This document shows, piece after piece, positions 1,024-54,360 of a DNA stretch of 59,824 nt. Position 1 is the stretch's first letter, and every line of letters begins with the position of its first letter. A program made the translations under genes and the position numbers. The notes beneath the pieces are model-generated. The model did not search any database. It saw only the letters and a program-made list of their open reading frames with translations, and was not told where the DNA came from. Source of the stretch: Jimgerdemannia flammicorona (lineage: Eukaryota). The DNA lies in assembly GCA_003990765.1 (NCBI GenBank), contig RBNJ01000017.1, positions 1 to 59,824 of the forward strand. The letters are read 5' to 3'.

Positions 1024-1098
<75 letters not shown>

Positions 1099-2620: not shown

Positions 2621-5615
2621 AATGGTGGGAAGGAGTGTTGGACTCAGATGGTGTACTGGTGTATGGTGTACAGGACATTCTTGGATTGCTGAAGGAGAGA
2701 TAGAGTGGATTGTGAAGTGAGGAGGAGGGTGGGGCAGATGCCGCTACAATTGAACAAACATTGGAGGATTGGCACCCACCACAAGTCGAAGGGCTAGGGG
2801 ACCTGGGGATGCCAGTACAGGAGGATGAGATCTATCAGGTTCTTGCCATGACAATGCCAGGTACAGTACCTGGGGAGGATGGTCTAGTGCTCCCAATGAA
2901 TTGAATCGAATCAAATTTGGCCCAAACTCGATTTGATTCGATCGAATCAAGGGTCCAATTTGATTCAATTTGAATCGAATCAAAGGTCCAATTCGATTCG
3001 AAGTTCGATTCGAACCTTAATTTTCAAAATATAATAACTCGACGAAAACTCATCCAAATTTAACGTATTTTAGCTTGTTAGATTCACCGTATTAATGTGA
3101 TTCTAACAAGCTAAAGTACATTAGATTTGGATGAGTTTACACTGAGTTATCACATTTTGAAAATTAGGGTTCGAATTAGACCCTCAATTCGATTCGACTT
3201 TTGATTCGATTTGAATTGATTCGAATTGAAAAATCCCCAATTCGATTTGACTTGTTTAACCCTCAATTCGATTTGATTTGAATTGATTCGACTCGTTTGG
3301 GAGCACTAGGATGGTCTGCCCTGGGACTTTTGGAAGCAAATGGTTGGAGTCCCAGAGATAATGGGAGAGATGACAGTACTGTGCGACCTCATTCTACAGA
3401 CAGTGAGGTGGGTGGGGGAGCAGGACCTTGGGCTGGTGACACTGCTTTACAAAAACAAAGGAAGGTAGGAGGATTGGAAGAACTGGCAGCTGATAATGTT
3501 GCTAGATATAGACAGAAAGTTGGTAACTAAGGTGGTGGTGGCAAGATTACAGAAGGTGGCCCAGCAAGTCATGGGTGTTGAGCAGAGGGGATTTATGGGT
3601 GGTCGGCTCATCAGGGATGGCACTGCCTGGGTACATGGCATTATCAAAGGGGCAAGGGCCTGTGGACTGGATGGGTGTCTAGTCTTCTTGAACCAGGAGA
3701 AGGTGTATGACTGGGTGCGAAGAGTCTGGCTGGCAAAAGTTTTGGATAGAATGGGGGTTCCACATCAGTTCCGGTCAGCAATAGTCAGCCTACTGGAAGG
3801 GAGTAGGGCTGCTCTCACATGTAATGGACATAGAGGGGTAGCATTCCCCTTAGGTAGGGGGGTGCCCCAGGGGGACCCATTGTCTCCCATTTTGTATGCT
3901 CTTTCTCTGGAACCCCTTATGGATAGGATTAGGCAGAGGATAGCAGGGCTCTCTGTCTTTGGCATAGGATGGAAAGTTGGGGCCTTTGCTGATGACATAG
4001 TGGTGGGTTTGGGTTCGATTGCTGATGTTGAAGAGCTCAAGATGACTGTGGGTGATATGAGGAGAACTCTGGAGCTAAGCTAAATTGGCATAAGTGTGAA
4101 ATGATGGTGCTAGGCAATGGTCTGGTGGGAGGGGAAGTTATAGGAACAATCATCCCCACTAGTGAAGCAGTGCGGTACTTAGGTATCTACTTGTCAGTCT
4201 ATGGGTCAGTTCTGCCCAGGCTTTGGTGGGAGCAGAGGATTAGAATCTGGGAGGAGGCCCTGCAGAGTTGGGGGGGAAGGCAATTTTCTCTGGCAGGGTG
4301 GGTCTCGATTTTGAATGTCTACTGGCTGCCAAAGTTGTGGTACCTGGCATATTATCTGGACTTCCCGGCCTAGGTGGTGAAGAGATTGATGAAGTTGGCG
4401 AAGGGATGGATTTGGGCTGGCAGGCAGAGTCAGATTGGTTGGGAGACCTTGTCCCTACCAGTGGCAAGAGGTGGTCTTGGGCTGGTTGACTTTACAAAAT
4501 AGTTATACTGCTTGAGAGTATGGTGGCTTAAGAGGGCAGTGGAATTGCGAGGAGGTGGATGGGTTCCTCTGCTACAGAAGATCTGGGAGAGGCGGTCATT
4601 GCCAAGGGGCTCAACTGGCAATCTACTCTCATTGGTAGGACTTCAGCATACTGAACAACTACAATATAAAGGATTTTAGTGGGGGATTGCAGAAGGGGTG
4701 CACTGCATTGGTATTCGTTAGCAGAGGAATGAAGGAGAGGAGGTTTGGGACCTGGCAATGTGGAGATGAGATTGTATACTGCTGGGTAGCACTCCCTTAA
4801 TTGAGTTTGACATTGGTGATGGAATGGAATGCCAAAGGGGACCAGGCCAGGATTTGTGGCCTAGTGGTTGGCAAGGAGTTGGAATTGGCGAAGAGTGGAA
4901 CTGGCATGGTGTTTGGACCTAGAGTGCTGCAGTGAGAAAGTGGTTGCCACCAAAGTACTGGGTGGTCTAGTGGTGCATGCTGTAGAGGAATGTTATGCTC
5001 AACTTTTACTTGGGGCACCTTGTTGTAGGGGGTTGCTTTGACTGTGAGGAGTGCCATAATGTAGGGCAGGAGGGGGGTTATGTACAGATGTCTGAACATT
5101 GGCTAGGAGAGTGTGAGGTGTTGGGGGATTTCTGGCAGACAATTGGAGAACACTTGGGGGTACAGGGTAGGGGAGATGAGGTATGGGGGAGGTGGGAGGA
5201 CTCGAGGGATAGATTGGTAGGGGGGATAGAGAAGAAGTAGCTTACTTTGGATTGGGCTTTGGCTATTTGGGTGGAGCTGGCCAGTCATTGGCTATTTGTT
5301 TTTGAGGACAGGAAGAGACAGGGCTTGGGGGACCAGTTGCTGCAGTGGCATAGGCTTATGGAAGACACCTTAACGGGCTGGTGGCTAGGTTGGGGGATGC
5401 AGGGTGGTTGGAGGTGCCACTTGGTGGAGAAAATTTGTGGGCAAAGTGGGGGGAGAGTTGGGGTAATTGGTGAAAGGGTGATTTTTATTCGTAAGGAGGT
5501 GGGGAGAGACCTCCCTGTGGGAATTGGGTAGTGGGTAGTGATGGTGTATACTTATTTATAGACTGGTAATAAAGGCAGAGTCCAAGTGACTATAAAAAAA
5601 AAAAAAAAAAAAAAA
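2621..5615 (+). mobile_element. 5'-truncated L1-clade LINE with degenerate RT, interrupted by a MITE
   Basis: RT motifs QRGF, RGVPQGDPLSP, FADD, VRYLGI (3496-4373); C-terminal zinc knuckle ~5030-5115; AATAAA then poly(A) 5594-5615; no TSD found. Confidence 0.92.
2885..3308. mobile_element. Non-autonomous hAT-type DNA transposon (MITE), 424 bp
   Basis: 12-bp TIR tagtgctcccaa/ttgggagcacta; 8-bp TSD ggatggtc at 2877-2884 and 3309-3316; the paralogous LINE site near 36505 has a single ggatggtc; many TTCGA/GAATC subterminal repeats; internal palindrome 3009-3175. Confidence 0.92.
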
Positions 5616-6370
5616 TACTGAGATCAATCCTTATAGGAATTGGTCTGGGTTATCCTGAAGGATAGGATGTCAGAAGTCTTCTACTTCTTCACTGTTGAGG
5701 GTGATAGTGGACTAGGCTTCTGTAGCCACCCTGGCTTCTAGTACATTGATACAGCAGGATGATAGGTCTCTGAAGTCTGAGACTCTGACATACTCCAAGT
5801 TGGAGATTGACCATGGTGCATGTCTGAAGATCTGATAGATCTTCTTAGCTGTTCTCATTTTGCATATGTCCATGGGAGTGGCATCTTGTAGCTCTTGGGT
5901 ACTGGTCTGTGGGAACTCCTGGCAGAGGAGGTTTCCTATTTCACACTCCTGCCACATTTAGAGATATTTGGTAGTAATGGTGATCCTTGTTTCCATTTCA
6001 CGGTGGTAGAAAATAAAGTGATAAGGGTCTGCAGTACCCAGGTTGATACTAGGAGTCCTTCTTGAGCAAGTCCCCATAGCTCTTCTGATGTCTTAGAACA
6101 TCCTTTCCTCGACTGAGATACCTTAGTGATTCCTTGACCTTGAGGTTTGGTGGACAGTAGGTATTTTATTTGTAGTAAGTCTTTGAGCTATTTTGGGATT
6201 AGTAGTTCTTGTTGGTTGCTGCTACTGTGGTTCCTTGATCCTTCTTTTATATTCTTCAGGATGCTTGTACTGTGGTCACAATGACTCACAGTTGATCATC
6301 ATTGCTCATCTTATATGCTGTATGATCTTCCTGTGCTCCAATCTGGTAGCTTATGAGGAAAGGCTGTCTC
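5616..6370 (-). repeat. Partial family A Gypsy LTR, truncated at both ends, with part of the LTR-borne ORF
   Basis: Reverse-complement match to ~53311-54065; same subtype as the 53273 LTR because it lacks the ~13-bp insert found in the 9383 and 19433 LTRs. Confidence 0.9.
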
Positions 6371-9300: not shown

Positions 9301-10997
9301 GAGTAGTTATTGTAGTAGTTGTTCATTTTTTAGCTTGAAAGTAAGAGATTCATCTTGAATCACCAGCTAATGGGCACCAAGTTATTATATAGTAGTCACT
9401 AAGTCCTTCAAATATGTCAGATTCTCTTCAAGGTATATCTCTTAGACTAACTCAAGTTTGTTATAAGCAAGTTCTTATTAGAGTGCCTTCCCAAGGTCTT
9501 ATAGTTCTCAAACTTCTTATCTTTAAACTATCTTGTTATCTCTTAGATTGCTTATAAGAAATTGTATATATTATACTGAGAGGAACTAACTTTATTTCAA
9601 AGAAAATAAGAATGGTATTTATACAAAATATAATTCAATGATTGCTAAGATATAAAGCTAAATATAAATTTCAATAACCAAATAAAAATACTGAAATACA
9701 GAAAACTGCCAAGTTTCAGGATCAGTATAGATGATTATACAGGTTCAGAATACTGGTATAATTTTAGTGATACAGAAAAAGAGTACTGGAATAATTCTGA
9801 GCCACATAAGGTCAGAGTAGAGGAACAGCTGTTATATAGGAAAAAAATGCCAGCATAATTCAGTATAACTAAGGAACTTAGAGCAGAATGTTCAGAACCA
9901 TAGGGGTTTCATCTTTATCAGAGGTCAGAATGTCTTTGAAGAAGATGAGGTCTGCAAATATTTCATCCATCTTGTTATATAGGTTGTACATTTTGCATTT
10001 GTCACATATTGCATGTGCTTTGCACATGTTATATGGGATGATGTCATCACTGGTGATGTTATCATATTTGGTAGCAGTAGGAACAAGGAGGTCTGGGGCT
10101 CTCCAGTTTATGAAATTCTCTTCTACATAATAGGGAACAAATGTGGGGTCTTGGAGAGGTCTAATCTGAATACTTGGGCCTTGGAATACTGAGATCAATC
10201 CTTACAGGAATTGATCTGAGTTGTCCTGGAGGATGGGATGCCAGAGGTCATCTACTTCATTACTATTAAGGGTGATAATGGACTGAACTTCTATAGCCAC
10301 CCTGACTTCTAGTATATTGATATAGTAGGCTGACAGATCTCTGAAGTCTGAGACTCTAATATACTCCAAGTTAGGGATTGACTATAGTATATGCTAGAAG
10401 ATCTGATGAATATTCTTTGCTATCCTTATTTTATATATATATATCTATGAGAGTAGCATCTTGTAGCTCTTGAGGGCTGGTCTGTGGGAACTCTTGGCAG
10501 AGAAGGTTTCCTATTTCATACTCCTGCCACATTTGGAGGTATTTGATAGTAATGGTGATTCTTGTTTCCATTTCATAATGGTAGAGAATATAATAATAAG
10601 GGTTACCAGTACTCAGGTTGACACTAGGAGTCCTTGTAGTGTAGGTCCTCATGGCTCTTCTGATGTCTTAGAACATCCTTTCTTCAACTGAGGTACTTTG
10701 GTGATTCCTTGACCTTGAGGTTTGGTGAGCAGCAGGTATTTTATTTATAGTAAGTCTTTGAGCTACTTTGGGATTGGTGGGTTTTATTGAGTTACTGCTA
10801 CTGCAGTTTTTTGATCTTTCTTTTATATTTCTTAGGATGCCTATACTGTGGTCACAATGACTTATAGTTGGTCATCATTGCTCATCTTGTAGCCTGGGTA
10901 AGTCATGTCATATGATCTTCTTATACTCCAATATAGTGGCTTTATAAGAAATTACTGTCTTTTGTACTGATATCATTATTCTGAGATCACTGTTACA
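6371..10997 (-). mobile_element. Gypsy family A element 1, 5' half (5' LTR, PBS, gag, protease, Cys/His module, dUTPase, RT start), inverted relative to its 3' half
   Basis: Collinear with 53273-57817; many stop codons; ends at RT ...LRLCINY at 6371. Confidence 0.92.
9383..10997 (-). repeat. 5' LTR of family A element 1 (~1.6 kb) with a disrupted U3 ORF at ~9878-10739
   Basis: Begins TGTAACA on the minus strand at 10997 and is followed by the PBS-like ACTTGGTGCCCATT at 9369-9382. Confidence 0.9.
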
Positions 10998-11659
10998 ATA
11001 TATTTAGAAGAATATATTAATAGCTAAAGTGGTTTAATAGAAATATCAAGCTGTTAAAATAATTTCTAAATATACTTCTTATCTCTCTCTTATATTTTGC
11101 TCTATTATATAATATAGACTACTAAGAGATAAAAATATTATCTTCTTAATCTCTAGTAAACTTACAATAGAGTCTCTCTCAAGCTTATTCTTTAGTATCT
11201 TGAGGATTAGAATACCAATACAGCACTCTTGAGTATTCTATATAGTCTTTTTATATAATTACTACTTATATTAGATAGTGGTTAATAGTATGAAACCTAA
11301 TCTTAAGAAATATAGTTATATATATTGGTCTTGCTAACTATATTATACTAATTGAGAGCAAACTATATAAACTTTTTCCTATATATATTTAGATATACTA
11401 TATGTATACTAATAAGAAATTTAAATTTATTAATCTTATATTATAGAATATAGCTAAGATAGAAAGAACCTTGAATTTCTACTATATTCATAGTTCTCTC
11501 TAATTCTTTATTAAATCTCAGTTATCTCTTTCTTTGAGCTTCTTGTCTAGCTACTATATACTATAGAGCTTCAGATATTAATATAATCTGAATTGGTCTT
11601 TAATAAGACTATGATCTAGACTATTGAGTATTTTGATAAGTCTATAGTTAATAGTATAA

Positions 11660-12049
11660 TGTAGCAGATACTAAGATGGGCAAGTACATCAGATTTCTTT
11701 ATCTTGAATTCTTGTCTTCTTGACTTCTAGAGTCAGTAGTTCCTTGAGGCCAAATGTGTTTAAAGAGGTAATCCCGAAAGTTCCTTTATCAGTATACTTG
11801 TTCTTTTTCTAATACTTTCGATCTGAGGTTTATTCACTTGAAGATACTGGGTTATTTATACAAGTTTGCTAGCTATGAGATGGCTACTGAGTTACATGGC
11901 TAAGTTATGAGTCATTTAGACAATGTCTAGAAATTTAGACAATGTCAAAATCGGCGACTGCTAACTATAAAACTATACTACTTTGGGAATGGGTGCGATC
12001 AAGTGTCTATTCCCTATTTCCTTCTTCCTAATTCAGCTATACCATCACA
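11660..12049 (-). repeat. 3' LTR of family B (~390 bp)
   Basis: On the minus strand the purine tract CAGGAGGAAG(T) precedes TGTGATGG at 12049; the LTR ends ...GCTACA at 11660; TATA-like GTATAAATAACCC at ~11849-11861. Confidence 0.75.
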
Positions 12050-12548
12050 ACTTCCTCCTGAATAGATGGTCTCGTCTCTGAGATATCTATTCAAACTTCC
12101 ATACTTCGACTGTCTGTATGGTTTTGTACTATTCAATTTGTTGCATGACTGTCTCCCAATGATGTCTCCTTATTTTATCAAAGTCAGTAGGGGTTACTCC
12201 TCACAGGTGGGCTAATGCTGATTCATCTTCTTGAAATAGCTTGTGGATCCTTTTGGCAATAGTGATCTGTGAGTAGGAGAGTTGGCACTCTGCGATCCAG
12301 TCTTCTTTGGTCTTTGCTGGATCCTGGTTGAGCACCCGTCCAAGCTTGAAGTACTCTTGGAACTCTGCCTGATATTGGTAGGCACTAAAATGTAAGATCT
12401 GAGAGAGATGAGTCTGCACAATACTCTGAATATCCTCATAGTATGCCTCTATGGTCGGAGGCTTGGTGGTGTGCCATTGTCTTTCAATAGCCCTTTGTGC
12501 AGCACTAGTGATCTTGAGTGCTGCTGCAGTGCTCCAGTTATTGGCCAT
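12045..12548 (-). pseudogene. Family B accessory ORF3 of unknown function (up to ~167 codons, in-frame stops)
   Basis: The 115-aa ORF 12201-12548 continues past TGA as GVTPTDFDKIRRHHWETVMQQIE*; its ATG overlaps the integrase end; similar to the LTR ORFs of families A and C. Confidence 0.75.
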
Positions 12549-15239
12549 GGTACTTCTTGAGTTGGTTTTGGTGAATGGTGGTAGGGATTATTGTGCCTGA
12601 GAGCTTTCGTAGTTGGAAAGTGGTCCCTTTTATATCTTGCACCAGGTAATGTCCTTCCCATTTAGGCTCCAGTTTTTGTGACCAAGAGGCTTCTACTATA
12701 TTCTGATACACCAGGACTTCATCTCTTATCTTAATAATCTCCAGGGGCTTGTGGGTTTTTTCTGCATTGCTCTATTGTAGTGCCTGCGCCTTGATTATAT
12801 AATCTTCTGCCTTTTTTCTAATTTGATGCAATCTCTGTATCTCCATATCTATATGCTTCCAGATTGCATCATTATCTGCTGACAAACTTCCACTAGAACC
12901 TTCTTCACCGAATAGCATTTCTTGTAGTGTAAAATGGGTGCTTTGTGATTGTATATTCCATAGAGTGGATAATGCTATTGGTAGATAGTGGTCCCAGTTT
13001 CCATATTCATCACAGATCTTGGCAATGATGTTCTTGAGGGTCTTGTTGGTTCTTTCTGCTTGTCCATTTCCTTGTGGGTGATAGGCTGTAGTCTTGATGT
13101 ATTGGATCTTGTACTTTTTGTAAAGAACCTCATGGAACTGGTTGACAAATTCTGTTCCTCTGTCTGTAGTAACTTGCTTTGGGGTCTTGAATCAGCAGAT
13201 GATTTCTCTATGAAAGAAATCGGTAATTGACTGTACATTGGCTTCCTTGAGGGGTCCGGCCTCTATCCATTTTGTAAATAGATCCACTATTACAATGACA
13301 TATTGGTTGCCAGTCAATGTCAGGGGTAGAGAGCCAATTACATCCATTGTGATGTGGGCAAATAGTATTGGTTCGATGTCTGCTGATCCAGGGGCTTGAT
13401 CCCATTGGTCTTGTTTCTGTTTCTCGCATTTGTCACAGGTTCTGACAAATCATCTGATATCTTCTTTCATTCCAGGCCACCACATAGTTCTTTTTGCTTT
13501 GTCATACATATTTGCTCCTCCTACATAATCCTGTTCATGTACTTCTTTCATCACTTGATTCTTCCGGTACTCAGAGATGACTAATTGTTGTCCTTTCTTG
13601 AGTATTTCTCCATCAGTTTCAAATTGTTTCCATGTTCGATTAATAATTGTTTTTGTCCATTCTTCCAGATGCGGGGGTATCTTTTGCTGCCCCAGGTAGC
13701 TGATGATTCCATAATACAGCTCCCTATTCATGGTGATTTTGTGGGGGTGGGGTCCTTCAGAGTGTCTGTGAGAGGGCATCAGCATTGGTGTTGGTTTTTC
13801 CAGAGCAGTGGGTGATCATGGCATTGTATGCTTGCAGCTTCATGATCCATCAGGCATAGATTCCTTTGGGCTCACTGGTAGTAAGCAACCAGGTGAGTGC
13901 TGAATGATCTGTCTAGATGGTGAAGTGTCTGCCAGCCAGATAGTAGTGGAACTTCTCTATAGCCCAGATAACTGCAAGGCATTCCAACTTGTATGATTCA
14001 TAGGACTGCTCAGCTCCTTGGGTACCTCAGCTGAGATAAGCTACTACATATTCAGCACCATTCTTCTTTTATATGAGGACAGCTCTAAGTTCTATTGCAC
14101 TGGCATCCATCTGCAGAATAAACTCTTGAGTCCAGTTGAGTCTTCTCAGGATTGGGGCCTGGGTCAATCTGGTCTTGAGCTCGTCAAAGGCTAGTTGCTG
14201 CTGCTGAGTCCACTGGAACTTGACCTCTTTTCTGAACAGATCATAGATAGGACTGGCGATGTGGGAGAACCTTCTGATAAATCTTCTGTAGTAGGATACA
14301 AGTCCCATGAAGGCTCAGGCTTCAGTGGTACTGGTAGGTACTGGGTATACTGCTACTGCCTTAATCTTTGTAGGGTCTGTATGTGTTCCTTCATGGTTGA
14401 TGATATGTCCAAAGTATGCGATTTCTTTTTCTCCAAACTTGCATTTCTTGGGCTTGATATAGAGGCTATGTTTGGAAGCCTTCTGAGGATTTCCTCAATG
14501 TGGTCCAAGTGTTCTTTGGCTGTTCGGCTGAAGATAATCATATCATCTACATATACCATCATCCATTTTTCCATAACATCTCTGAAGATACTGTTCATCA
14601 TTCACTGGAAGCTTGCTGGTACATTGCACATTCCAAAGAGCATGCAGAGATAGACATAAGTTCCATCTGGGGTGATGAAGGCTGACTTTTTGCTGGCTTC
14701 AGGTATAAGGCCAATTTGGTAGAATCCAGAGAACAGATCAAGAGTGGTGTAGAATTGTGCTTCATTCCCCAGTATGATAAGAATGTCACCGATGTTGGGC
14801 AATAGTTGTCTGTCCTTCTCTGTGACCTTATTGAGTCTTCTATAATCTGTACAGAGTCTTGGTGCAAATTCTCCTGGTCGGCTCCTTTCTTTGGTACAAG
14901 AACGATGGGGGAGAACCAAGGGCTACTGGCTTCTTCAATGATACTGAATTCCTCCATTTTCTTGATCTCTGTCTTGAGCCATTCTCTGTATGCTGGTGGA
15001 ATGGGGCAGGCCTTCTGATAGATTGACTTTGTATCTCCAGTATTGACATCATGATAATACAAGGGTTTCTTGGTCTTGATGTTCTTGAAATCCATGGCCA
15101 GTATATCCTCAAATGTATGCAAGAGGCTCTGCAATTCTTCTCTGAGGGGAAGTTTCTTCTGATTGTATAGGTGTGTTTGTCTTGGCTTTCCTCCTTTTTG
15201 TGCTCCAATTCGGTGATCTTAGTTGCTGTGAGGACTCCT

Positions 15240-15655
15240 CTTTCTGTAGAGCTGAATCTAGCTCTTCCTCATTAAGTTTGTCTGATGTTTGCAACCTCCT
15301 TGATTCTTGGATTAAGGACAGATAGGATGAGCATTTGTGCCAGCCGATCCTTCTTCCTTACTTCAAATGGGATTGTTGGGTTGTGGTTCTTGGTGAGGAG
15401 AAGAATTTTTCCAGTATAATCTGAATCAATAACTCCTCCTTCTATAGATATTTCACTCTTTGCCAAGCTGCTCCTTGTCTTGAGGATTCTGACATAGTTT
15501 GGTGGGATGGTTACTTCAATTCCTGTTCCTAGAATGGTGGTGGTCTGCAGTTTGAGTATTGTGTATGTTGTGGTGGATAGGTCCATTCCTGCTGCATTCT
15601 CTGATTTGTATTGTGGCATGACTGCATCAGGGTGAATTCTTCATATCTTGACTGT
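15240..15655 (-). pseudogene. dut: Trimeric dUTPase domain of family B pol
   Basis: Motifs AGMDL, KTRSSLA, GGVIDSDYTG, DRLAQML. Confidence 0.92.
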
Positions 15656-18600
15656 GATGTCTTCTTCATCATTGCTATCATCCAATAGTTCTGGTGGTCC
15701 ATCTTCTGGTTCCTCCTGGTTCTTCTTTAGCTTGTTGGTGATCTTCTTCACCTCAATGATACAAGAGTAGCAGCAATCTAAGTGCTGGGCACAGTACATT
15801 CTTTCACCATGGGGGCACCTTCCTAGTGGGGCATATCCATCTGTGATTCTTATATACCATTCTTCCTCTGTCAATTGCTTGTCTTTTCCTTTCTTTATAG
15901 TAACCATATAGGCTTCTTCTTCTTGGTCTTCCTCCATCTCAGGGCGGACTCCTTTGTGGATATTGATGGGAATTCTGATCTTCTTTCCCTGGTAGATGAT
16001 CTGCATCTTCTGTGCACTGAGGTCAATCATTGCCTTGGCTTTATGAAGCCATTGATTGCTGATGAGGATATCATAGTTAGTTGCATTGGTGATGATGACA
16101 TCTACAGAGATAGTGGCCTCTCCGAACTTGATTGGTACATCTTGGATCTTTCCCAAAGGTGTTGCTCATGTTCCATCAGCTGTGACGAATACCAGTTTGG
16201 TGGCTTCTTCTATCTCCCAGCCTAGGCAGTCTACTGCTTTCTTGGTGATGAGATATTCTCCTGCTCCTATATCAATAATGGCTTCGAAGACTCAATCCTT
16301 AATCTGGCAGGTAATATAGGCTGATGTTTTCTGATTATCTTCACTCTCTTCATCTGAATCTTCTTGTGCATTATTGGCTTTGATTATTTTCCAACCTTGG
16401 TCTTTGCCAATGTCTGAGATTCCTGTCCTCATTTGCTGTCTGAATGTTGGGATTTCAGCCAGCTGGCCAAAGGTTGCATTGACCTTTTGGTTCTTGAGGT
16501 CCTTGAAGATGTCATACTTAAAGGTCTTGCTCTTGCACAGTTTCTGCTCCTTCTTCCCTTCACTTGATGGGGTAGTATTTCGAATAATATCTTCTACTGC
16601 TCACTCCAGCTCAGCATCTTGTTCTAGCTTCATTTCTTGATCAGCTTCGCTCTGCTGGGTCTCATTTCCGATGACAACTTCTGGTTGCTTTGTTTGTATC
16701 TGGGTCTTCTTAGGAGGTCTGCCTGGAGATCTTTTGTAGAGACTGGATTGGACATCCTTCTAGGAAGCTCAATATAATCACTAAGAAGGATAGGCAGCTC
16801 TTGCCAAATATTCAAGAAATCCTTACTACCCTTGGAAGTAAAGCCAAATACTACACCACCTTGGATCTATTCTTAGGCTTCTATCAGATTGGTCTCACTC
16901 AAGATACCAGTGTGAAATCAGTCTTCATCACACCTAATGCCACCTATATCTACCTGTGAATACCATTTAGAATGTACAATGCTCCAGCCAGCTTTCAGCA
17001 AATGATGAACAGAGTCTTTAGTAATGAGATTGGAAAATAGCTCTTTATCTATATTGATGATGTGATCATCTTTAGCAATACTGTACAGAAACATATCAAC
17101 TATATATAGCTAGCTCTCAAGAAGCTCAAGGAGTATGGCCTCTACATTAAGCCCAAGAAGTGTAAGTTTGCAGCTCAGAAAATCACCTATCTAGGACACC
17201 TCATTAACCAGACTGAAATTCACACAGACTCTATGAAGATTGAGGCTATTGCAGCCTATTCAAGATCCAGAACAACCATAGAAGTCCATGTCTTCCTTGG
17301 ACTAGCCTCCTACTACAGAAGATTCATATAAGGATACTTCAATATTGCAGTACCTATCTATGAACTACTAAAGAAGGAGACTAAATTCAAATGGACTAAG
17401 AAATACTAAGAAACCTTCAATGAACTCAAGATCAGATTGACCCAAGTACCCATTCTCAGAAGACCAGATTGGAACCTAGAGTTCATCCTGCAGACAGATG
17501 CAAGCACTATAAGACTTAGAGCAGTTCTAGCTCAGAAGAAAGATAGATATGAATATATCATCTCCTATGTAAGCTGAGGTACCTGCAGAGCAGAACAGAA
17601 CTATAAGTTATACAAGCTTGAATATTTAGCAGTAGTTTGAGCAGTAGATAAGTTTCACTACTATCTAGCTGGGAAACACTTTACTATTTAAACAGACCAT
17701 TCTGCTCTTGCCTGGCTATTCTATATACTGAACCCCAAAAGAATATATATCAGATGGATCTACAGGCTGCAAGAGTATGACTATACTATCAAGTACTACT
17801 CAGAGAGAACCAACACTAATACTGATGCACTCTCAAGGATACCTCAAAATACCCCCATCAAGACTATTCAATATGAATAAGAAGTTATACTATGAATTAA
17901 TCAGCTATCTTGAGCAGTGGAAGATGCCCAATCATCTCAAACTCTGAACTATCACTATCATCAACCAGACTTGGAAATAATTTGAACTAGATAACACTAT
18001 ACTCAGAAAAGGAGAAAAGCTTGTAATATCTAAACACAAGAAGTATCAAGTAATGAAGAAAGTATATGAACAAGGATACCTAGGAGGAACTAATATGTAT
18101 AACAAAACAAGAAGAACCATATAGTAGCCCAAGATGGAAGAAGATCTGTACCAATTTGTCAAAGGGTGTGACAAGTGCCAAAAACAGAAACAAGATCAGC
18201 AAGACCAGGCACTCAGGTCATCAAGAATTGAGTCTATCTCCTTCCACCACATTGTAATAGATATCATTAGGTTACTACCAGTAACACTATCAGGAAACTG
18301 CTACATCATAGTTATTGTAGACCTCTTTACTAAATAGATAGAAGCAGGAGTATTACAAGAAGCCAATGTCCTCTCTATAGCTGACTTCCTACACTGAGAA
18401 ATCATCTGCCACTACAAGACACCAAGGCAAATCACTACAGACTATAGCACAGAATTTATCAATAGATTCTATGAGATAATATATCAGAAATACAAGATTC
18501 AGTACATCAAGACCACTGCATATCACTCTCAAGGAAATGGACAGATAGAAAGAACCAATAAGACCCTCAAGAACATCCTAGCAAAGATCTCAGATACATA

Positions 18601-19432: not shown

Positions 19433-22281
19433 TGTAATGGTGACCTCAGAATGATGACATCAGCATAAGAGATAGCAATTTCTTGCAAAGCCACCAGATT
19501 GGAGTACAAGAAGATCATATGGTATAACTCACCCAGGCTACAAGATAAGTAATAATGACTAACTATGAGTCATTATGACCACAGTACAGATATCCTAAGA
19601 AATATAAAAGAAGGATCAAGGAACTGCAGTAGCAGCAACTCAATAAGATCCACTAATCCCAAAGTAGCTCAAAGACTTACCACAAATAAAATACCTGCTA
19701 CTCACTAAACCTCAAGGTTAAGAAACTACTAAGACACCTCAGTTGAAGAAAGGATGTTCTAAGACATCAGAAGAGCCATAAGGACCTGTACTACAAGGAC
19801 TCCTAGTGTCAACCTGGGTACTAGTGACCCTTATTATTATATTCTCTACTGCTGTGAAATAGAAACAAGAATCACCATTGCTACTGAATACCTCTAAATG
19901 TGGCAGGAGTATGAAATAAGAAATCTTCTCTGCCAGGAGTTCCCACAGACCAGCCCTCAAGAGCTATAAGATGCTATTCTCATGGATATATGTATATAAA
20001 ATAAGAATAGCAAAGAAGATTCATCAGATCTTCAGGCATATACCATAGTTGATCCTCAACTTAGAGTATGTTATTATCTCAGATTTCAGAGATCTGTCAG
20101 TCTGCTATATCAATGTACTAGAAGCCAGGGTGGCTACAGAAGCCCAGTCTACTATCACTCTCAATAGTAATGAAGTAGAAGACCTCTGGCATCCCATCCT
20201 CCAGGACAACCCAGATCAATTCCTGCAAGGATTGATCTCAGTATTCCAAGACCCAAGTATCCAGATTAGACCTCTCCAAGACCCCACATTTGTTCTCTAT
20301 TTTGTGGAAGAGAATCTCATAAACTAGAGAACCCCAGACCTCCTTGTTCTCACTACTGTCAAACATAATGATGTCACCAATGATGATATCTTCTCATATG
20401 ACATCATCTCATATGATATATGCAAAGCATATAAAACACATAACATATGTGAAATATACAATCTACATAATGAGATAGATGAAATGTTCACAGACTTCAT
20501 CTCTTTTGAAGATATTCTGACCTCTAATGAATATAAAGCTCCTATGGTCCTGAATATTCTACTCTAAGTTCCTTAGTTATACTGAATTATGTCAGCATTC
20601 TTTTTCTGTATAACAGTTATTCCTCTACTTTTTTTTTTTTTTTTTTTTTTTAACAGACTCAAAGTCTCACAGATTTTTATTAGAAGGGAATCTAGACTAT
20701 ATAGGCCAAAACCCTCCCCCACTACCTATCAAGCACTGCCTCCTCATTAATCTAGACTAGTTATTATCTAGTAGCTCAACTATGCTAGGTGTAGCAGGAC
20801 TAATAGTAGCCCACACCTCATTCTGTACACCATACTCTTCCTATCACTAGGGGAAATCCAGCTATATATCAATAACCAAAAGCACATGCCCAAGACCCCA
20901 ACATATATACAAGGCCATGCCCAAGCTGAATAGAATAGCTCTTGCTACTCCAAAGAGAATAATAGATAAAGAAAAACTCTCATCAAAGTACATTATAGTG
21001 GGTAGGGCCTGGTTCTCCTAGTCAAGATAAGTAAAGAACTTACACATGAGGTAGGAGGAGACCCCCATACTTTACTACTCAAGCCTGCAGACCTTGATCA
21101 CATTACTATATTAGCTTCTGGTTCCAGTTGAGTGCAGCCAAGACATCTGAAATAGGTAGCCTCAGACCCCCCGACCTCCCTCCCAACAACTGGGGTCCAA
21201 CTTGCTAAATTATCAATAGAAGCCAAAAGTGATACCTACTATCTAACTACTCTACACTAATTAAAAGACCCCACTGAAGTAGTACCTACTCCAGCCCTGA
21301 TAACCACCCCCAGCCTGATACTCTACTGGTTTACCATTATTGTCCTTTCTCCTATCTATAATAGCCATCTCTTCTTTCATTCTGATAATATCCAAAAAGC
21401 AGTCACCTATACCAGAACTGTACTTACCAGGAAGCTCACCACAGCCAGAGGGCCTCACTACAGGTACTGAGGACCTACAGGTAACCTATACTAGGCACTT
21501 GATGCCCAAGGTCAGCCAACTCCCTATGTAATCTATGATACACTGAGATAGCATCTTATTGGTAATAACAAAAGAAAGAAGATACTGCACCAAAATGGAT
21601 ATACTTCAGATGTAGCTGAAGATATCAGAAACTGCAAAAAAGTGGAGAAGACACTAATCCAACACTGATAAAGGGGCAACTCATCACCATTGCCTCCCTC
21701 TCACTACCCTGCAATAGGTACAGCAAATCAACCCAAGGTAGAGGGGGTAATAATTGTAAAAAGTGGACTTGGAAGATCACTTACCAAACTATTGTAACTG
21801 ATAAGATAGTAGAGAAAGAGGCATAATAGCTGTTCCTCCACTGATATTCTAACCTTGTGTAGCTCAGAATTATTGCAGTACTCTTTTCCTATATTATCAA
21901 AATTATACCAGTATCCTAAACCTATGCAACTATCTGTACCAACTCTGGAACTTAGTAGTTTTCTGTGTTCTAGCATTTTTATTTAGTTATTAAAATTTAT
22001 ATTTAGCTTTATATCTTAACAACTATTAAATTATATTTTATATAAATATCCTTCTTATTTTCTCTGAAATAAAGTCAGTTCCTCTCAGTGCAATATATAC
22101 AATTCCTTGCAAGCAATCTAAGAGATAACAAGATAGTTTAAAGATAAGAAGTTTGAGAACTATAAGACCTTGGAAAGGCACTCTAATAAGAACTTGCTTA
22201 TAATAAACTTGAGTTAGTCTAAGAGATACACCTTGAAGAAAATCTGATATATTTGAAGGACTCAGTGACTACTATGTGATA
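19433..22281 (+). repeat. 3' LTR of family A element 1, interrupted at 20630-21822; U3 ORF remnant ~19691-20567
   Basis: Runs tgtaatggtgacc...actatgtgata and is collinear with the other family A LTRs. Confidence 0.9.
20630..21822 (-). mobile_element. ~1.2 kb non-autonomous poly(A) retroelement, copy 1
   Basis: T-tract ~20629-20651; 20-bp TSD ataacagttattcctctact (20610-20629) / ataatagctgttcctccact (21823-21842) differing by 4 transitions; absent from the partner LTR near 9820; full-length match to 58645-59824. Confidence 0.88.
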
Positions 22282-22969: not shown

Positions 22970-24610
22970 TATTATATAGTGAGCACTAAGTTCTCTAAGT
23001 ATGTCAGATTCTCTTTAAGATATATCTCTTAGATCAACTATAAGTTTCTTATAAGTATATTCTTTTAGAGTGTCTTTCTAAGGTCTTATAGTTCTCAAAC
23101 TTCTTATCTTTAAACTGTTCTGTTGTCTCTTAGATTTTCTTGCTTAGAATTGAGTAGAGAACTGAAACTTCTGTACTTCTTTAGTAGCTGAGTACTTGAA
23201 TACTTGAGTGTTTTAATACTGACTTTATTTTAAAGGAAATGAGAGGAGTATTTATACAAAATATAATTCAATGATTGCTAAGTTATAAAGTAAATATAGA
23301 TCTCAATAACTAAATAAGATATTTGAATACAGAAAACTTCAGATTGTAAGTACAAATTCAAGTATCTATATAATTAGTTATATAAGATCAGAATGCTAGA
23401 ATAATTTCTAACAGTTACACAAGATCAGAATACCAGAATAATTTCAACAGTTGTACAAAAAACTTAAAGCAGAATGTTTAGAATCCTGAGAACTTCATCT
23501 TCATCATTATCATTAAGACTAGAGGTTGGAAAAAGGATGTCTTCAAAGGAAATAAGATCAGCAAATATTTCTGTAAGTATCTCATCTATTTCACATATTT
23601 TGCATGTTTTGTATGTTTTATATATTTTGTATATTTTACACATGTTGATTAGTGGGATGACATCATCACCAATGACATCATCACATTTAGCAGTGGTAGA
23701 AGCAAGAAGATTAGAGGCTCTCCAATCTATGCCATTTTTCTCTACAAAGTAGGAGACAAAGGTAAAATCTTGAGGGGGTCTAATCTAGATACTGGGGCCT
23801 TGGAATACTGAGATTAATCCTTATAAGAATTGATCTGGATTGTTCTGGAGGATGGGATTTCAGAACTCTTCTATCTCATTACTTTTGAGAGTGATGGTGA
23901 ATTGGACTTCTGTAGCCACTATGGCCTCTAGTACATCTATATAGTAGGTTGATAATTCTTTGAAGTCTGAGACTCTGGTATACTCCAAGTTGGGAATTGA
24001 CCAAAGTACATACCTGAAGACCTAATGGATCTTTTTGGCTACTTTCAATTCACATATATCTATAGAGATAGCATCTTGTATCTCCTGGAGACTGGTCTGA
24101 GAGAATTCCTGGTAGAGAAGATTTCCTATTTTGTATTCCTGCCACATCTAGTGGCATTCAGTAGTGATAGTAATCCTTGTCTCCATTTTACAGCAGTAGA
24201 GGATAAAGTGATAAGAGTCATCAGTACCCAGGTTAAGGCTAGAAATTCTTCTGGTATAGATCTTTATGGCTTTTCTAATATCTTAAAATATCCTTTCTTA
24301 GACTGAGAATCTTTGGTAGTTCCTGGACCTTGAGATTTAGTGAGTGGCAGACATTTGTTTATAGTGAGTCTTTTGAACTATTTCAGGATTTTGTAAGTCT
24401 TATTTGAGTTACTGCTGCTGTGGTTTCTTAGTTCTTCTTATATTCTTTGAGATATCTATCTTGTGGTCATTATGACTTATAGTTTGTCATTATTGCTTAT
24501 CTTATAGTCTAGGTAAGTCATGCTATATAATTTTCTTATACTTCAATCTAGTGACTTATAAGGAAAGATTGTCCCTGTGATGATATCACCATTCTAAGAT
24601 CACCATTATA
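22970..24610 (-). repeat. 3' LTR of family A element 2, with U3 ORF remnant ~23464-24354
   Basis: PPT (plus strand tcttccttctaaa) at 24611-24623; matches 44097-45690. Confidence 0.9.
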
Positions 24611-36899: not shown

Positions 36900-38975
36900 T
36901 GTAAGAGGGTTACTTGTTAGTGTAACCATTATGTAGTTCTGGAAGGGTTTTCTGGAAGCTCTGGATATTCTGGAAGACCATTTTCTTTAAGGTTAAGATC
37001 AATTTCATATAGAGTGCATTCTCTATACTCATTGATTTCAAGTTCAGATTGATATCTTAACCAAAGTCCTTTTTTGGACTAGTTTTGGATGTTCAGGATT
37101 TTCTGTTTTTCAGGAAGTTCAAGAAACTAAGGCCAGCTTAGTTGAATTGGTATATCACTGCAGACAATACCTAATTAGAAAATTTCATAATAGGGTTAGG
37201 AGTGAGACCTAACAGAGAGCAGATTTACTTAAGAGTGGTTTGTGAGTTATTAAATAGGTTTATTTGCTATTCATGATATTGCTATACTAGGAGTAGTTAT
37301 ATGAAGGAGTATTGTAGAGAAGTGCTCAGGAGTTGTATTCAGATTGTTCAAGTATTCAAGTCTGAGATTCTGAGGTCTGGGGGAGGGGGTATTTATACTA
37401 GTGAGAGGCTATCTGGACTATACTAAATATGAATATAGTACTTAGTACCTTGCTGAGTTGGAATATAGTTATATAGTACAAGTGTGATTTGATATGTCAA
37501 GGGATCATCTGACTGCTGAGTCAGTTATATCATACAAGGCTAATCTAACTATACTATGACTGCTAAGCTATCTATAGATTTAGACACTATCTGGGTAGTC
37601 TTTGATAATACATATTACCATTGATGACATCATCTCTAATAAAGTAGTTATCTAGGAACAGTTGTTTGCAGATTAATTCTCCTTATTTGCTGAGGTAATA
37701 ATATATTGAGACTTCGTCACCATCCCACAGGATAGCATTATCTGTCTCATATACTAAGTAAGGAGTTGGTGGATAAAGGAGGGGTATGTTATCTTTACTT
37801 TCCTCAGATTTGCTATTTGCATACCTTCTATAAGTTATGGTACTATGAGTTGCTGAGTTGTAGTAAGCTGGTGACTGTGGTTCATGTTACTCATATTCAG
37901 GTGGTAGAGTAGTTGGTTTGATCTTGAGAGTTGTCTGAAGATACAGATTGTATTCTCTGGTTTCTTTGTTATAGTTGAAATAATCAGGGGTGAATGCAGG
38001 TTAGTATTCATACTAATGGTCATTGTCCTAATAAGTCTCATAGGTGGTTATGAACTGTTATAAGTTCATCAGCAAGGTTGGTAGAGTGATCAGGGTTGGT
38101 AGGGATCCTTGGCTTGAGGTCATGTCAGCATCAGAGGGATCATTGTCTTCTACTTCATCTTTATCAAATCAGATTATATTATAGATATCCTTCATAGTAT
38201 ATCTGACTTAAGGCATTTGCAGGATATAGTTATCAGAGTATAGGAAGGTTCTGTCTGTGGTCTTAATATATTCAAGATACTTATAGTTGAGTTCTTATAT
38301 TATATCATCTATTTGGCCATAAGATAGAGTAGCAACCATTTCAGCAGTAGTAGCTTGGAGGTAGGAAATAATGGTGCTATACTTATAGAAGAGTTCTTGA
38401 TACTTGCGAGCAATGAGTTTTTAGTGTTGAGATATCTAGATAATATCTATATCATAATGGTGTTTGACCATGTCTTCTAGGAGATAGCTGATCTGGTAGT
38501 AGCTTGAGATTTGTCCAATTTGGTAGACTTTGCTAAGTATGTTCAGGGCATTCCATCAGGCTTCCACAAAGTAGAGGAGTGCTAGGCTATGGATATTTAT
38601 AAGGGATAGAGGGGGTGTGGCTCGGTTGACAATAGTATTTCAAATATCAGCATAGATATAGTTGTAGATCTTGGTGGTTATGTTTGTATATTCAGGAGTT
38701 GAGGTTGTATATTTGGTTTGTTTTGGTTTTCTGTTTTGACATATCTCAGTACTTAGTATATATATATTTGGTCCTGATTGGTAAGATCTCATTTGTATAA
38801 ATCTTATATTCTGTAACTTCATATTGACTTAGCTTTATATATAGTAACTTTGGTTTGACTCAGCTTCATGATCTTACAGGTGGTTTTCAGATTTTTTCAG
38901 AGGTTGTATGTAACTTCAGTGGCTTGTTCTGAGGGTGACATGTGATTTTGGTGACTTGGAGGTTGTGCACTTACA
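36900..38975 (-). mobile_element. Solo LTR, family C, 2076 bp
   Basis: TGTAAG...CTTACA termini; perfect 5-bp TSD gaagg at 36895-36899 and 38976-38980; removing it restores LINE RT DQEKAYD; minus-strand GTATAAATACCCCC at ~37385-37398. Confidence 0.9.
38100..38822 (-). pseudogene. Degenerate ORF inside the family C LTR, homologous to the A and B accessory ORFs (ends approximate)
   Basis: A single frame read through CGA/CAR-type stops: ...NRATPPLSL...SSYYQISYLLED...KLIARKYQELFYKYSTIISYLQATTAEMVATLS...DKDEVEDNDPSD. Confidence 0.65.
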
Positions 38976-44096: not shown

Positions 44097-45690
44097 TATT
44101 ATATAATAGATGCTAAGTTCTCTAAGTATGTCAGATTCTCTTTAAGATATATCTCTTAGACTAATTATAAGTTTCTTATAAGTAAGTTCTATTGGAGTAC
44201 CCTCTCAAGGTCTTATAGTCCTCAAACTTCTTATCTTTAAACTATTCTGTTGTCTCTTAGATTTACTTGCTTGGAATTGAGTAGAGAACTAGAACTTCTA
44301 TACTTTTGGAGTAGTTAGATACTTGAATGCTTGAGTATTTTAATATTGACTTTATTTCAAAGAAAATGAGAGAGGTATTTATATAAAATATAATTCAATG
44401 ATTGCTAAGTTATAAAACTAAATATAGATCCCAATAACTAAATAAGATATTTAAATATAGAAAACTTTAGATTATAAGTACAAATTTAAGTATCTATACA
44501 ATTGATTATAAGAGATCAGGATGCCAGAATAATTTCAACAATTATACAAAAAACTTAGAGTAGAATGTTCAGAATCCTGGAGACTTCATCTTTATTACTA
44601 TTATTAAGGCTAGAGATCAGAGACAGAATATCTTCAAAGAAAATAAGATCAGTAAATATTTCTGTAAACATCTTATCTATTTTGTATATTTTATATATTT
44701 TATATATTTTGCATATTTTGTATATTGATTAGTGGGATGACATCATCACTGATAACATCATCATATTCAGTAGCAGTGAGGTAAGAAGATTAGGAGCTCT
44801 CCAATCTATGATATTTTCCTCTATAAAGTAAGAAACAAAGGTGAGATCTTAATGGAGTCTAATCTGAATACTGGGGCCTTGGAATACTGAGATTAATTCT
44901 TGCAGAAATTGATCTGAATTATCCTGGAGGATGAGATTCTAGAACTCTTCTATCTCATTACTTTTGAGAGTAATAGTAAATTGGACTTCTATAACTACTA
45001 TGACCTCTAGTACATCTATATGGCAGGCTGATAATTTTTTAAAGTCTGAGACTCTGGTATACTCCAAGTTAGAAATTGATCAAGATATATGCCTGAAGAT
45101 CTGATGAATCTTTTTGACTACCCTCAATTTGTATATATCTATAGAGTTGGCATTTTGTATCTTCTGAAGATTGGTCTGAGGGAATTTCTGATAGAGAAGA
45201 TTTCTTATTTTGTATTTCTGCCACATTTAGAGGTATTTGGTAGTAGTAGTGATCCTTGTCTCCATTTTATAGTAGTAGAGAATAAAGTAGTAAGAGTTAC
45301 TAGTACTCAGATTAAGACTAGGAATCCTTCTAGTATAGATTCTTATAGCTCTTCTGATGTCTTGGAATATCCTTTCTTGGACTGAGAATCCTTAGTGATT
45401 TCAGGATCTTGAGGTTTGGCAAGTAGTGGACATTTGTTTATAGTGAGTCTTTTGAACTATTTCAGGATTTTGTAAGTCTTGTTTAAGTTGCTATTACTGT
45501 GGTTTCTTAGTTCTTCTTATATTTTTTAAGATATCTATCTTGTAGTCATCATAACTCATAGTTTATTATTATTACCTATCTTGTAGCCTAGGTGAGTTAT
45601 GTTGTATAATCTTCTTATACTCTGATCTGATGACTTGTAAGGAAAGACTGTCTTCTGTAATGATGTCACTATTCTAAGATTACTATTACA
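44097..45690 (-). repeat. 5' LTR of family A element 2, with U3 ORF remnant ~44555-45434
   Basis: Begins TGTAATAG on the minus strand at 45690; PBS-like ACTTGGTGTCCAGTGG at 44081-44096. Confidence 0.9.
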
Positions 45691-53034: not shown

Positions 53035-53514
53035 GGTTGGAGTGGGACATGTTTGATTGTGTTAGAGAGGGGAATTAAGGGAATTGGAACGGTTTTAAAT
53101 TCTCTTGTTCGTTTACATGTGTTCCGGTGATAGATTCGTACTTTCCGGAATCATTACATTTGAAGATTATGAGTGCCCCAACCATTGCGAATCCATTGAC
53201 TCTAGCACAAATGGACAGGAAGAGTAAGAATGTAATAGATGAAGCTCGTCATAATAGAATATGGGTATATAATGTAACGGTGACCCCAGAATGATGACAT
53301 CAGCACCGGAGACAGCCTTTCCTTGCAAGCCACCAGATCGGAGCACAAGAAGATCATATAGCATACGAGATGAGCAATGATGACCAACTGTGAGTCATTG
53401 TGATCACAGCACAAGCATCCTGAAGAATATAAAAGAAGGATCAAGGAACCACAGTAGCAGCAACCAACAAGAACCACCAATTCCAAAATAGCTTAAAGAC
53501 TTACCACAAATGAA

Positions 53515-54348
53515 ATGTCTGCTGCCCATCAAACCTCAAGGTCAAAGAATCACCAAGGTATCTCGGTCAAGGAAAGAATGTTCCAAGACATCAGAAGAGC
53601 CATGAGGACCCACTCAAGAAGGACTCCTAGTGTCAACCTGAGTACTGCAGACCCTTATCACTTTATTCTCTACCACTGTGAAATGGAAATAAGGATCACT
53701 ATTGCTATCAAATGCCTCCAAATATGGCAGGAGTATAAAATAGGAAACCTCCTCTGCTGGGAGTTCCCACAAGCCAGCATCCAAGAGCTACAAGATGCCA
53801 CTCCCATGGATATATGCAAAACAAGGACAGCTAAGAAGATCTATCAGATCTTCAGGCATGTATCATGGTCGATCCCCAACTTGGAGTATGTTAGAGTCTC
53901 AGACTTCAGAGATCTATCATCCCACCATATCAATGCACTAGAAGCCAGGGTGGCTACAGAAGCCCAATCCACTATCACCCTCAACAGTAAAGAAGTAGAA
54001 GACTTCTGGCACTCTATCTTTCAGGACAACCCAGACCAATTCCTGTAAGGATTGATCTCAGTATTCCAAGGCCCAAGCATCCAGATTAGACCTCCCCAAG
54101 ACCCCATATTTGTTTCCTATTTTGTGGAAGAGAACCTCATAGACTGGAGAGCTCCAGATCTTGTTCCTGATTTTCCCACCACAGCCAAATGTGATGATGT
54201 CATCGGCGATGACATCATCCCACATGACATTGACATATATGAGACACATAACGAAGCATACAAAAATGACAAATTCACAGATCTCATCTCCTTTAGTGAT
54301 GATGATGACAAGGATGAAGCTTCTATGGTCCTGAACTTTCTGCTCTAA
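53515..54348 (+). pseudogene. LTR (U3)-encoded accessory ORF, 277 codons, with one premature TAA at 54046-54048
   Basis: ORFs 53515-54048 and 54052-54348 share a frame; the copy at ~20220 reads QFLQGLIS (CAA) across the stop; the terminal ...LL* is conserved in the full LTR copies. Confidence 0.85.
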
Positions 54349-54360
54349 GTTCTGTATTAC

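Follow-up and report, generated by a model that had tools for sequence, protein, structure and literature searches.

What is the decayed open reading frame (ORF) that lies between the integrase and the 3′ end of a retrotransposon in Jimgerdemannia flammicorona, and why do frames resembling it turn up inside the long terminal repeats (LTRs) of other elements nearby? The stretch analyzed here, which we call the window, is positions 1 to 59,824 of contig RBNJ01000017.1 (59,824 bp, 40% G+C), in which decayed LTR retrotransposons are nested around a pair of host genes. An earlier note, made by eye, had quoted protein strings from three families of these elements, A, B and C, and proposed that they represent one conserved accessory gene carried by three Gypsy lineages at different positions. 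We find that the family B locus, ORF B, is the pseudogenised third gene (ORF3) of a dUTPase-carrying Ty3/Gypsy LTR retrotransposon. Our overall account, which we consider probably correct, is that this ORF3 belongs to a protein family shared with the LTR-borne homologues of families A and C, that the LTR border has moved across the gene, and that the product may be a trans-acting regulator.

All three quoted strings are present in the window. Family A's lies at 53728-53853 (+) and in further A copies, family C's lies at 38388-38507 (-), and the family B reading is the exact minus-strand translation of 12040-12590, with its start methionine at 12548-12546. Two in-frame stops (12201-12203 and 12129-12131) break ORF B ahead of its terminal stop at 12087-12089; apart from these two stops, the window copy aligns over 153 of 153 residues, at 78% identity, with the intact database protein P0014. 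The frame runs in the sense direction of the element. Directly upstream is the C terminus of integrase, reading ...LKKYHGQ and a stop (...VHQNQLKKYHGQ and a stop), and about 27 nt separate the end of ORF B from the polypurine tract (PPT).

The layout of family B is gag, protease, dUTPase, reverse transcriptase (RT), RNase H, integrase, ORF3, PPT and LTR. This places the gene between integrase and PPT, the position of env, beside a short LTR, just as had been described from the letters. In the window the internal region is 5′-truncated, with stops and frameshifts. A nearly intact family B element is present in L001, a public metagenome contig of 6,479 nt and one locus from a metagenome scan with the B alignment; its positions 1613-6384 are 83.7% identical to window 11973-16724 (blastn). 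One L001 frame of 1,281 codons (774-4616) encodes Gag with a zinc knuckle (zf-CCHC, residues 206-222), protease (410-532), dUTPase (648-775), RT (RVT_1, 892-1057) and RNase H (1120-1248), followed by integrase (Integrase_H2C2, then rve) with one frameshift and one stop. An uninterrupted ORF B of 153 codons stands at 5795-6256, in the same place as in the window, and 3′ of it is the same PPT/TGTGACGG junction. At its start, L001 carries an ORF B-type tail, a PPT, a complete LTR of ~455 nt ending GTTACA and the primer binding site (PBS) TTGGTGCCCATTGG. Similarity between window and L001 ends exactly at the L001 LTR end, and the family B 3′ LTR therefore runs from 12049 to 11655, terminating ...ACATTATA; its landmarks are TATAAATA at 11853-11860 and, 18 nt later, AATAAA at 11829-11834.

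Both the domains and the ends of these elements are those of Ty3/Gypsy. Pfam finds the order Gag zinc knuckle, protease, RT, RNase H and integrase in L001 and in the window copies, and the termini consist of LTR ends TGTAAC/TGTGAC...ACA, a PBS and a PPT of the form AGGAG(G/A)AAG. The PBS TTGGTGCCCATTGG lies 3′ of the 5′ LTR in three window copies and in L001. Between protease and RT, the dUTPase domain (PF00692) was detected in four window frames with E values of 1e-22 to 1e-28.

Are the A, B and C frames related? We searched 1002 six-frame pieces of the window with a broad profile made from the A copies and four diverged database relatives, and from neither B nor C. Family B matched at E 2.9e-8 (29.5 bits, profile positions 8-134) and family C at E 6.3e-4 (15.2 bits, positions 9-130), while the best unrelated window piece had an E of at least 0.4; of the 6012 control pieces, 1002 reversed and 5010 shuffled, none exceeded 7.7 bits. 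Profile-profile alignment of A (9 sequences) with B (10 sequences) was significant (hhalign, 91% probability, E 9.7e-7, 115 columns), and so were B against P0010 (hhalign, E 8.7e-6) and a tblastn search with the intact B protein P0014, which reached the frame of the family A element A53 at E 5.2e-4. These results support the view that A, B and C form one protein family, with a predicted helical core of ~135 residues common to A and B and, more weakly, to C. When B was added to the profile, the C match (E 6.7e-4) did not gain, which makes C the weakest link. Thus the family proposed in the earlier note holds up, and its three Gypsy lineages shrink to two, A and B, since C is a solo LTR and the window contains no C pol. 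A T-P-P/S motif said to lie upstream in all three families aligns between A and C, and B's TEPP falls in a different column.

Outside the window the family is small. It has three close database relatives and six matches among 1.84 billion representatives, and a mixed-profile search of 7860 candidates yielded 17 proteins with E ≤ 0.01; only a few dozen relatives are found overall. Among them are intact B-type proteins (P0014 to P0022, including the 153-aa P0014) and intact A-type proteins of 247 to 342 aa. Scans of IMG/VR with the A and B alignments gave no confirmed match. Profile searches found no ORF B relic in the 375 nt between integrase and PPT of family A and no ORF A relic in the B LTR.

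The pattern of substitution supports a real gene. For ORF B, comparison of the window with L001 gives 38 differences at the first, 26 at the second and 89 at the third position over 153 codons (pN 0.21, pS 0.84). For ORF A, the subfamilies A53 and A45 differ by 0.25, 0.18 and 0.40 per position, compared with 0.34 in the non-coding LTR. Because of this codon-position bias and the intact copies in databases, we read the accessory ORF as a gene under purifying selection, in keeping with its description as a conserved accessory gene. It evolves much faster than the rest of the element, with ~16-24% protein identity between A and B versus 56-68% for Gag-Pol.

In family A the homologue (247-342 aa) is encoded wholly within an LTR of ~1.5 kb, and in family C it also lies in a long LTR, as had been stated for both. 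The window has six ORF A copies, all broken: A53 by 1 stop, the others by 3-8 stops, with two also frameshifted and one truncated. Family A LTRs start TGTAA(C/T)GG (five copies aligned) and end ...TGTAACA. Both 3′ LTRs have a PPT and the pol 3′ end upstream, with the PPT/LTR junction AGGAGAAAGA/TGTAATGG, and three 5′ LTRs are followed by the same PBS as in family B (TTGGTGCCCATTGG at 54794 after the A53 5′ LTR). Within the A53 LTR, ORF A occupies positions 243-1076, with TATAAAAG at window 53428-53435, TATAAATA at 54553-54560 (LTR 1281) and AATAAA at 54580-54585 (LTR 1308).

Other features of these LTRs and their leaders may be recorded here. Tandem repeats in the presumed unique 3′ (U3) part are family specific, with units of 35-37 nt in A (54355-54445, where A53 has a 35-nt unit repeated 2.6 times, and 23376-23452) and of 21 nt and 18 nt in two B LTRs (L001 174-277 and 6396-6479); they are candidate enhancers or binding-site arrays. 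The A19 3′ LTR comprises 19433-20597 and 21900-22277 and is split at 20629-21823 by ~1.2 kb of inverted family A pol, of which 20646-21818 matches 59824-58654. Families A and B, whose pol genes are only ~67% identical, hardly differ at all in the PBS and the leader's first ~60 nt (TTGGTGCCCATTGGCTGGTGATTCAAGAC.AATCCCTCACTTTCAAGCTGAA). Such near-identity despite pol divergence points to strong constraint, for example on priming, packaging or a splice donor.

Is the LTR-borne gene expressed? Contigs of two public runs, X1 and X2, were compared with window 36000-55999, a stretch that lies apart from the family B locus. Two GT..AG introns of host genes are missing from these contigs and several bins have no cover, so that the contigs behave as RNA assemblies; the uncovered bins (e.g., 41336-42669 and 46672-48005) were used only as silent stretches. 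Contigs 88-92% identical to ORF A cover 53513-54144, with 32 of 276 letters differing at 53513-53788 and 38 of 404 at 53581-53984. The motif TATAAAAG stands 87 nt upstream of the ORF A ATG in three of five copies (TATAAG in the other two), and a single AATAAA, in the LTR core, occurs between 54300 and 54800; together these make an LTR-internal transcript of ~1.1 kb possible. Eight of the 10 contigs listed encode A-type proteins, and five of those eight are 1,018-1,181 nt long, which fits such a transcript without proving it.

The family C element is a solo LTR flanked by a 5-bp target duplication, CCTTC (38976-38980 and 36895-36899), the only such duplication seen among the window elements, and a paralogous copy still shows the empty target site at 26927-26932. 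It has TATAAATA at LTR position 1579, and its ORF C region is AT-rich with many stops. Within 36000-55999, contig depth peaks at 37027-37309, or C LTR positions 1667-1949 (bin means 378 and 1776), with at least 20 variant contigs downstream of the C LTR TATAAATA. This segment could be the repeat and unique 5′ regions (R-U5) of an active C family.

What might the protein do? An AlphaFold2 model of P0014 (18 aligned sequences) is all-helical, with eight helices (predicted local distance difference test score [pLDDT] 71, predicted template-modeling score [pTM] 0.62). The highest 19-residue Kyte-Doolittle mean is 0.19-1.05 in eight of eight family proteins, and there is no transmembrane segment, so that the product is not env-like, a point on which the first reading was right. 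The model and composition suggest a soluble, all-alpha, fast-evolving protein. A-type proteins add a basic N terminus, a second conserved block (NPILQDNPDQFLQGL...) and an acidic tail with DLISF/ILNFLL motifs; in P0004 the charge is +8 over the first 40 residues and -14 over the last 60. This acidic, hydrophobic-studded tail looks like an activation domain.

Searches for a known relative gave little. Pfam assigned no family at the curated level to the window frames or to any of the 18 family members, and a profile search of PDB sequences reached E 0.17 at best. With the P0014 model, Foldseek returned 0 PDB and 0 BFVD matches at E ≤ 0.001, and the best VIA-align hit, the USP8 N-terminal domain (Z 5.9, rmsd 5.7, 99 aligned), is a generic helical bundle in the uninformative range for helical models. 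In the ESM Atlas, where the model of P0004 has a pLDDT of 0.35, the best feature score (0.83) and template-modeling scores (≤ 0.33) were both at noise level. A helix-turn-helix (HTH) was checked separately: HTH_Tnp_Mu_2 was matched weakly by 2 of 18 members (Pfam, best E 0.031), Spo0J in VIA-align (Z 5.6) was tied with unrelated helical proteins, and TetR-family chains appeared in Foldseek only at E > 3.

The likeliest role may be that of a regulator acting in trans on expression of the element itself or on its RNA. We offer this tentatively, from position and composition; an assembly cofactor would be another candidate. One can also envision the same anatomy serving a different job, with the protein acting as an antagonist of host defence (RNA silencing, chromatin or methylation, autophagy) or as a dose-dependent factor in copy-number control. 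Evolution this fast relative to Gag-Pol is typical of conflict genes, placement in the LTR would scale dosage with the number of LTRs, solo LTRs included, and the A-type tails carry acidic-aromatic motifs, EEFWNPIL and DLISFEDI, which we take to resemble short linear interaction motifs. However, neither homology nor fold connects the family to known suppressors, and the features listed fit an activator equally well. We hold this alternative to be a somewhat doubtful one.

How, then, did the gene of a regulator, if that is what it is, come to lie on either side of the LTR border? The B LTR (~75-395) aligns with the last ~300 nt of the A LTR, 3′ of the ORF. Scores for the five A copies were 67, 62, 57, 45 and 41, against a null of 400 random window segments with mean 27.7, standard deviation 5.8 and maximum 54, so that three of five copies (67, 62 and 57) exceed every null segment. 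Upstream of the ORF, the A LTR scored 29-34 against the B LTR, the null level. The last 900 nt of the C LTR scored 52 against the B LTR, compared with 33.6 ± 5.6 for shuffles, none of 200 being as high. Common to the A and B LTRs are TATAAATA followed after 18-19 nt by AATAAA, ~205-240 nt before the LTR end, and an identical PBS and start of the leader. Read from alignments and motifs, pol, the ORF and an LTR core (TATAAATA, AATAAA, U5, PBS) appear in the same order in A, B and C. What differs is that the PPT and the LTR 5′ edge are downstream of the gene in B, which has a short LTR and a single internal copy, and upstream of it in A and C, which have long LTRs. Since the B LTR matches the post-ORF and not the pre-ORF part of the A LTR, the order is shared and only the PPT/LTR border differs.

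This collinearity is what is expected of the earlier note's idea that the gene moved into or out of U3 through a shift in PPT use, and that idea is supported. It would put ORF A and ORF C in a putative U3, a placement suggested by motifs and homology. We imagine that plus-strand priming switched to another site and that the LTR border thereby crossed the gene. A crossing of this kind would place the gene in U3, from where it would be copied into both LTRs and could persist in solo LTRs; the B protein might be made from a subgenomic RNA and the A protein from subgenomic RNA, LTR-internal transcripts or both. A bolder version, which we regard as speculative, is that the LTR of families A and C is itself a complete gene, with a TATA box 87 nt before the ATG, a selected ORF of 250-340 codons and a poly(A) signal that belongs to the element. 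Any LTR, even a solo one, could on this view produce a fast-evolving, retroelement-specific regulator from a ~1.1-kb transcript, with dose tracking LTR copy number, and the comparison with B would capture within a single genome how a gene was swallowed or expelled by a changed plus-strand priming site.

Several results weigh against our overall account. The homology is seen through broad profiles: pairwise BLASTP of the A and B window frames is not significant (E 0.15, 21% identity), a narrow profile of four close A proteins gives B only an independent E value of 0.2 and misses C, and the membership of C depends on 15 bits, marginal yet above all controls. The LTR-core alignment is only moderate, in that two of five A copies (45 and 41) fall below the null maximum of 54, and the interval from ORF A to the LTR core yielded no relic of a PPT. 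The ORF A-like RNA contigs stem from other copies and are uninformative as to strand and ends. On function, B-type proteins have no acidic tail, and nothing function-specific emerged from Pfam, PDB sequences, Foldseek against PDB and BFVD, VIA-align or the ESM Atlas. Finally, A and B resemble each other in the PPT and in the opening ~10 nt of the LTR, which could reflect functional constraint or the movement of a cassette past a fixed PPT.

This last point bears on an alternative that we judge unlikely: that the PPT stayed fixed and the gene arrived on different sides of it, by cassette transfer or by independent capture, template switching between co-packaged RNAs being one possible route. 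Its proponents could cite that likeness of PPT and LTR tips on opposite sides of the ORF. They could add that TATAAAAG precedes the ATG by 86-87 nt in both families, in non-coding LTR in A and, in B, inside the conserved integrase codons D-I-K-G (12632-12625(-), 86 nt before the ATG; L001 ~5709-5716), within a weak collinear alignment (score 29, reached by 20 of 600 null segments, best p ~0.03). There is also a precedent in bdelloid rotifers, where the same ORF3 types are reported to have moved between unrelated retroelements (PMC5408684). Yet the collinearity of pol, ORF and LTR core, together with a pre-ORF A LTR unlike the B LTR, is the prediction of a border shift. PPT and LTR tips are short constrained motifs that any new border must gain, and similarity over the ~120 nt upstream of the A and B ATGs is not significant overall, with 8 of 10 comparisons failing p < 0.05.

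The family B frame might, instead of being a separate gene, extend integrase at its C terminus, with ribosomes entering it by +1 frameshifting or through termination-reinitiation at an overlap. The ATG of ORF B does overlap the end of pol, by 11 nt in the window (pol stop at 12538-12540) and by 44 nt in L001, with the ORF in the +1 frame. Against this, the overlap length is not conserved, both copies have their own ATG in the context ACCATGG, and the A and C homologues have their own ATG and are split from pol by the PPT and LTR edge. No fused or longer protein (600-2000 aa) carrying the domain was found either, which is weak evidence. We think an integrase extension quite improbable. That the frames are chance open frames in repeats and their resemblance a compositional artefact is hardly credible, for although all eight window copies are broken, the pairwise A-B E value is poor and the C region is AT-rich and full of stops, the controlled profile and profile-profile statistics, the strong third-position bias and the intact diverged copies elsewhere already contradict it.

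Table 1. Coordinates in the window (and L001 where stated) of the accessory ORFs and the elements that carry them
Feature	Position	Strand	Basis
ORF B, decayed 153-codon accessory gene of Gypsy family B	12087..12548	-	translation, P0014 match, profile match
Family B PPT, TATTC AGGAGGAAG T, just 5′ of LTR start TGTGATGG	12050..12064	-	sequence; junction present twice in L001
Family B 3′ LTR, 395 nt	11655..12049	-	blastn to L001, LTR-end alignment
Family B internal region: mid-gag, protease, dUTPase, RT, RNase H, integrase	12538..16724	-	Pfam; L001 identity
dUTPase domains, all window Gypsy copies	6506-7198, 15275-15640, 41200-41889 (-); 56640-57917 (+)	as marked	PF00692
Shared leader	window 54794-54860 (+), 9310-9380 (-), 44020-44094 (-); L001 535-600	as marked	A/B comparison
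A53 5′ LTR, 1,519 nt, TGTAACGG...ATGTAACA	53273..54791	+	LTR start/end alignments
ORF A, best window copy, one stop (54046-54048), no frameshift, homologue of P0004 (271 aa)	53515..54348	+	profile, alignment
ORF A copy, A45 5′ LTR (~44099-45690), 7 stops	44558..45433	-	
ORF A copy, A24 3′ LTR (22972-24608; pol 3′ end and PPT upstream), 8 stops	23467..24354	-	
ORF A copy, A19 3′ LTR, one frameshift and 7 stops	19691..20564	+	
ORF A copy, A11 5′ LTR (9385-10997), one frameshift and 4 stops	9881..10739	-	
ORF A truncated copy, LTR fragment 5614-6370, 6 stops	5613..6164	-	
Family C solo LTR, 2,076 nt, TGTAAG...CTTACA	36900..38975	-	comparison with empty site
ORF C, heavily decayed homologue of the family core, LTR positions 298-675	38301..38678	-	profile matches, ~15 bits

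The surroundings of these elements are summarized briefly. The adjacent host genes encode GPR1/FUN34/YaaH (48406-49275(+)) and acetate kinase (51642-53031(+)), with one GT..AG intron each (48731-48817 and 52385-52493), confirmed by the RNA-type contigs. The contigs that cover acetate kinase stop at 53238 and 53265, no more than ~35 nt from where the A53 LTR begins (53273), and thus A53 was inserted at the 3′ end of that gene. At 16724-16762 the family B (-) and A19 (+) elements, both 5′-truncated, abut head to head within 40 nt, which suggests a deletion or inversion between the two. Two ~79% identical copies of another RT-bearing repeat (25065-32941 and 32941-40901) are inverted and meet near 32941; an inverted family-A-like pol fragment (30878-32941) lies between them, and large plus-strand frames at 28887-30817 have no Pfam match. 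Pure T runs of 70 nt (1026-1095) and 34 nt (25061-25094) mark edges of repeat fragments. The window has 0 Rfam matches and 0 tRNA genes.

The extra genes known from LTR retrotransposons are mostly env-like or enzymatic, and here we have an orphan, selected one whose product is predicted to be soluble. Its position, internal in family B and within the LTR in A and C, offers a natural comparison for the evolution of LTR borders, which affects U3 content, gene dosage and persistence in solo LTRs. The 3′ regulatory genes of complex retroviruses also find here a counterpart in a retrotransposon. Should the protein regulate or protect its element, it could help to explain the success of dUTPase-bearing Gypsy elements in genomes inflated by transposable elements. 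For annotation there is a warning, in that real genes can hide in long "LTRs."

That leaves the relation to known systems. The literature on LTR-internal ORFs of retrotransposons yielded only mouse mammary tumor virus (MMTV), other retroviral cases and ORF3s, with no account of this family or of a gene internal in one lineage and LTR-borne in its sister; libraries of the Repbase type were outside this scope, and the absence is no proof that such an account is unpublished. The accessory-ORF family is a new protein family.

Gypsy-like ORF3 genes are known and diverse, including those of dUTPase-bearing elements in bdelloid rotifers (PMC5408684), and an extra gene, brtn, is described for Botrytis Boty/BcGypsy1 (10.1101/2021.04.13.439636). 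Our gene resembles these in being an extra gene between pol and PPT of a gag-pol element, in a lineage that also bears a dUTPase, and in being non-enzymatic and lineage restricted; a difference is that here homologues also lie within the LTR of sister families. From env-like, GDSL and DEDDy ORF3s it differs in having no sequence or fold relation to them, no transmembrane segment and no Pfam match. The brtn gene of Boty is antisense, unlike the sense-oriented accessory ORF here.

In MMTV, sag is an ORF within the U3 of the LTR, and its product is a type II membrane glycoprotein superantigen. Families A and C resemble this arrangement in having a complete gene inside the LTR, upstream of the putative genomic promoter, the U3 position here being a putative one drawn from motifs. 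With such a location the gene would be present in both LTRs, and its expression could be driven by the 3′ LTR or by promoters internal to the LTR. Unlike Sag, the product is predicted to be soluble and helical and belongs to a retrotransposon without env; no Pfam, PDB or BFVD match of any kind links it to Sag, an absence that does not exclude a relation.

The foamy virus tas/bet and human T-lymphotropic virus (HTLV) tax/rex genes and the reported 3′ORF of snakehead retrovirus (PMC12193657) are similarly located between pol or env and the 3′ LTR or overlap U3. Their small, non-structural products are a further likeness, and the difference is that no BFVD match to our protein was found at E ≤ 0.001. 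Foamy virus Tas has the properties of a nuclear activator. A basic N terminus and an acidic C-terminal tail, as A-type proteins have, would be expected of such an activator; the tail is restricted to the A type and missing from the B type.

For the LTR itself, a parallel is crapaud of Podospora, in which variation among LTR subfamilies is concentrated in the 5′ (U3) part before the TATA box and the 3′ part is conserved (PMC10787394). The accessory-ORF families likewise combine a variable U3 part with a conserved 3′ part. In crapaud the variable segment is shorter than 200 bp and non-coding, whereas here the extra U3 amounts to 1.1-1.6 kb and contains a selected ORF.

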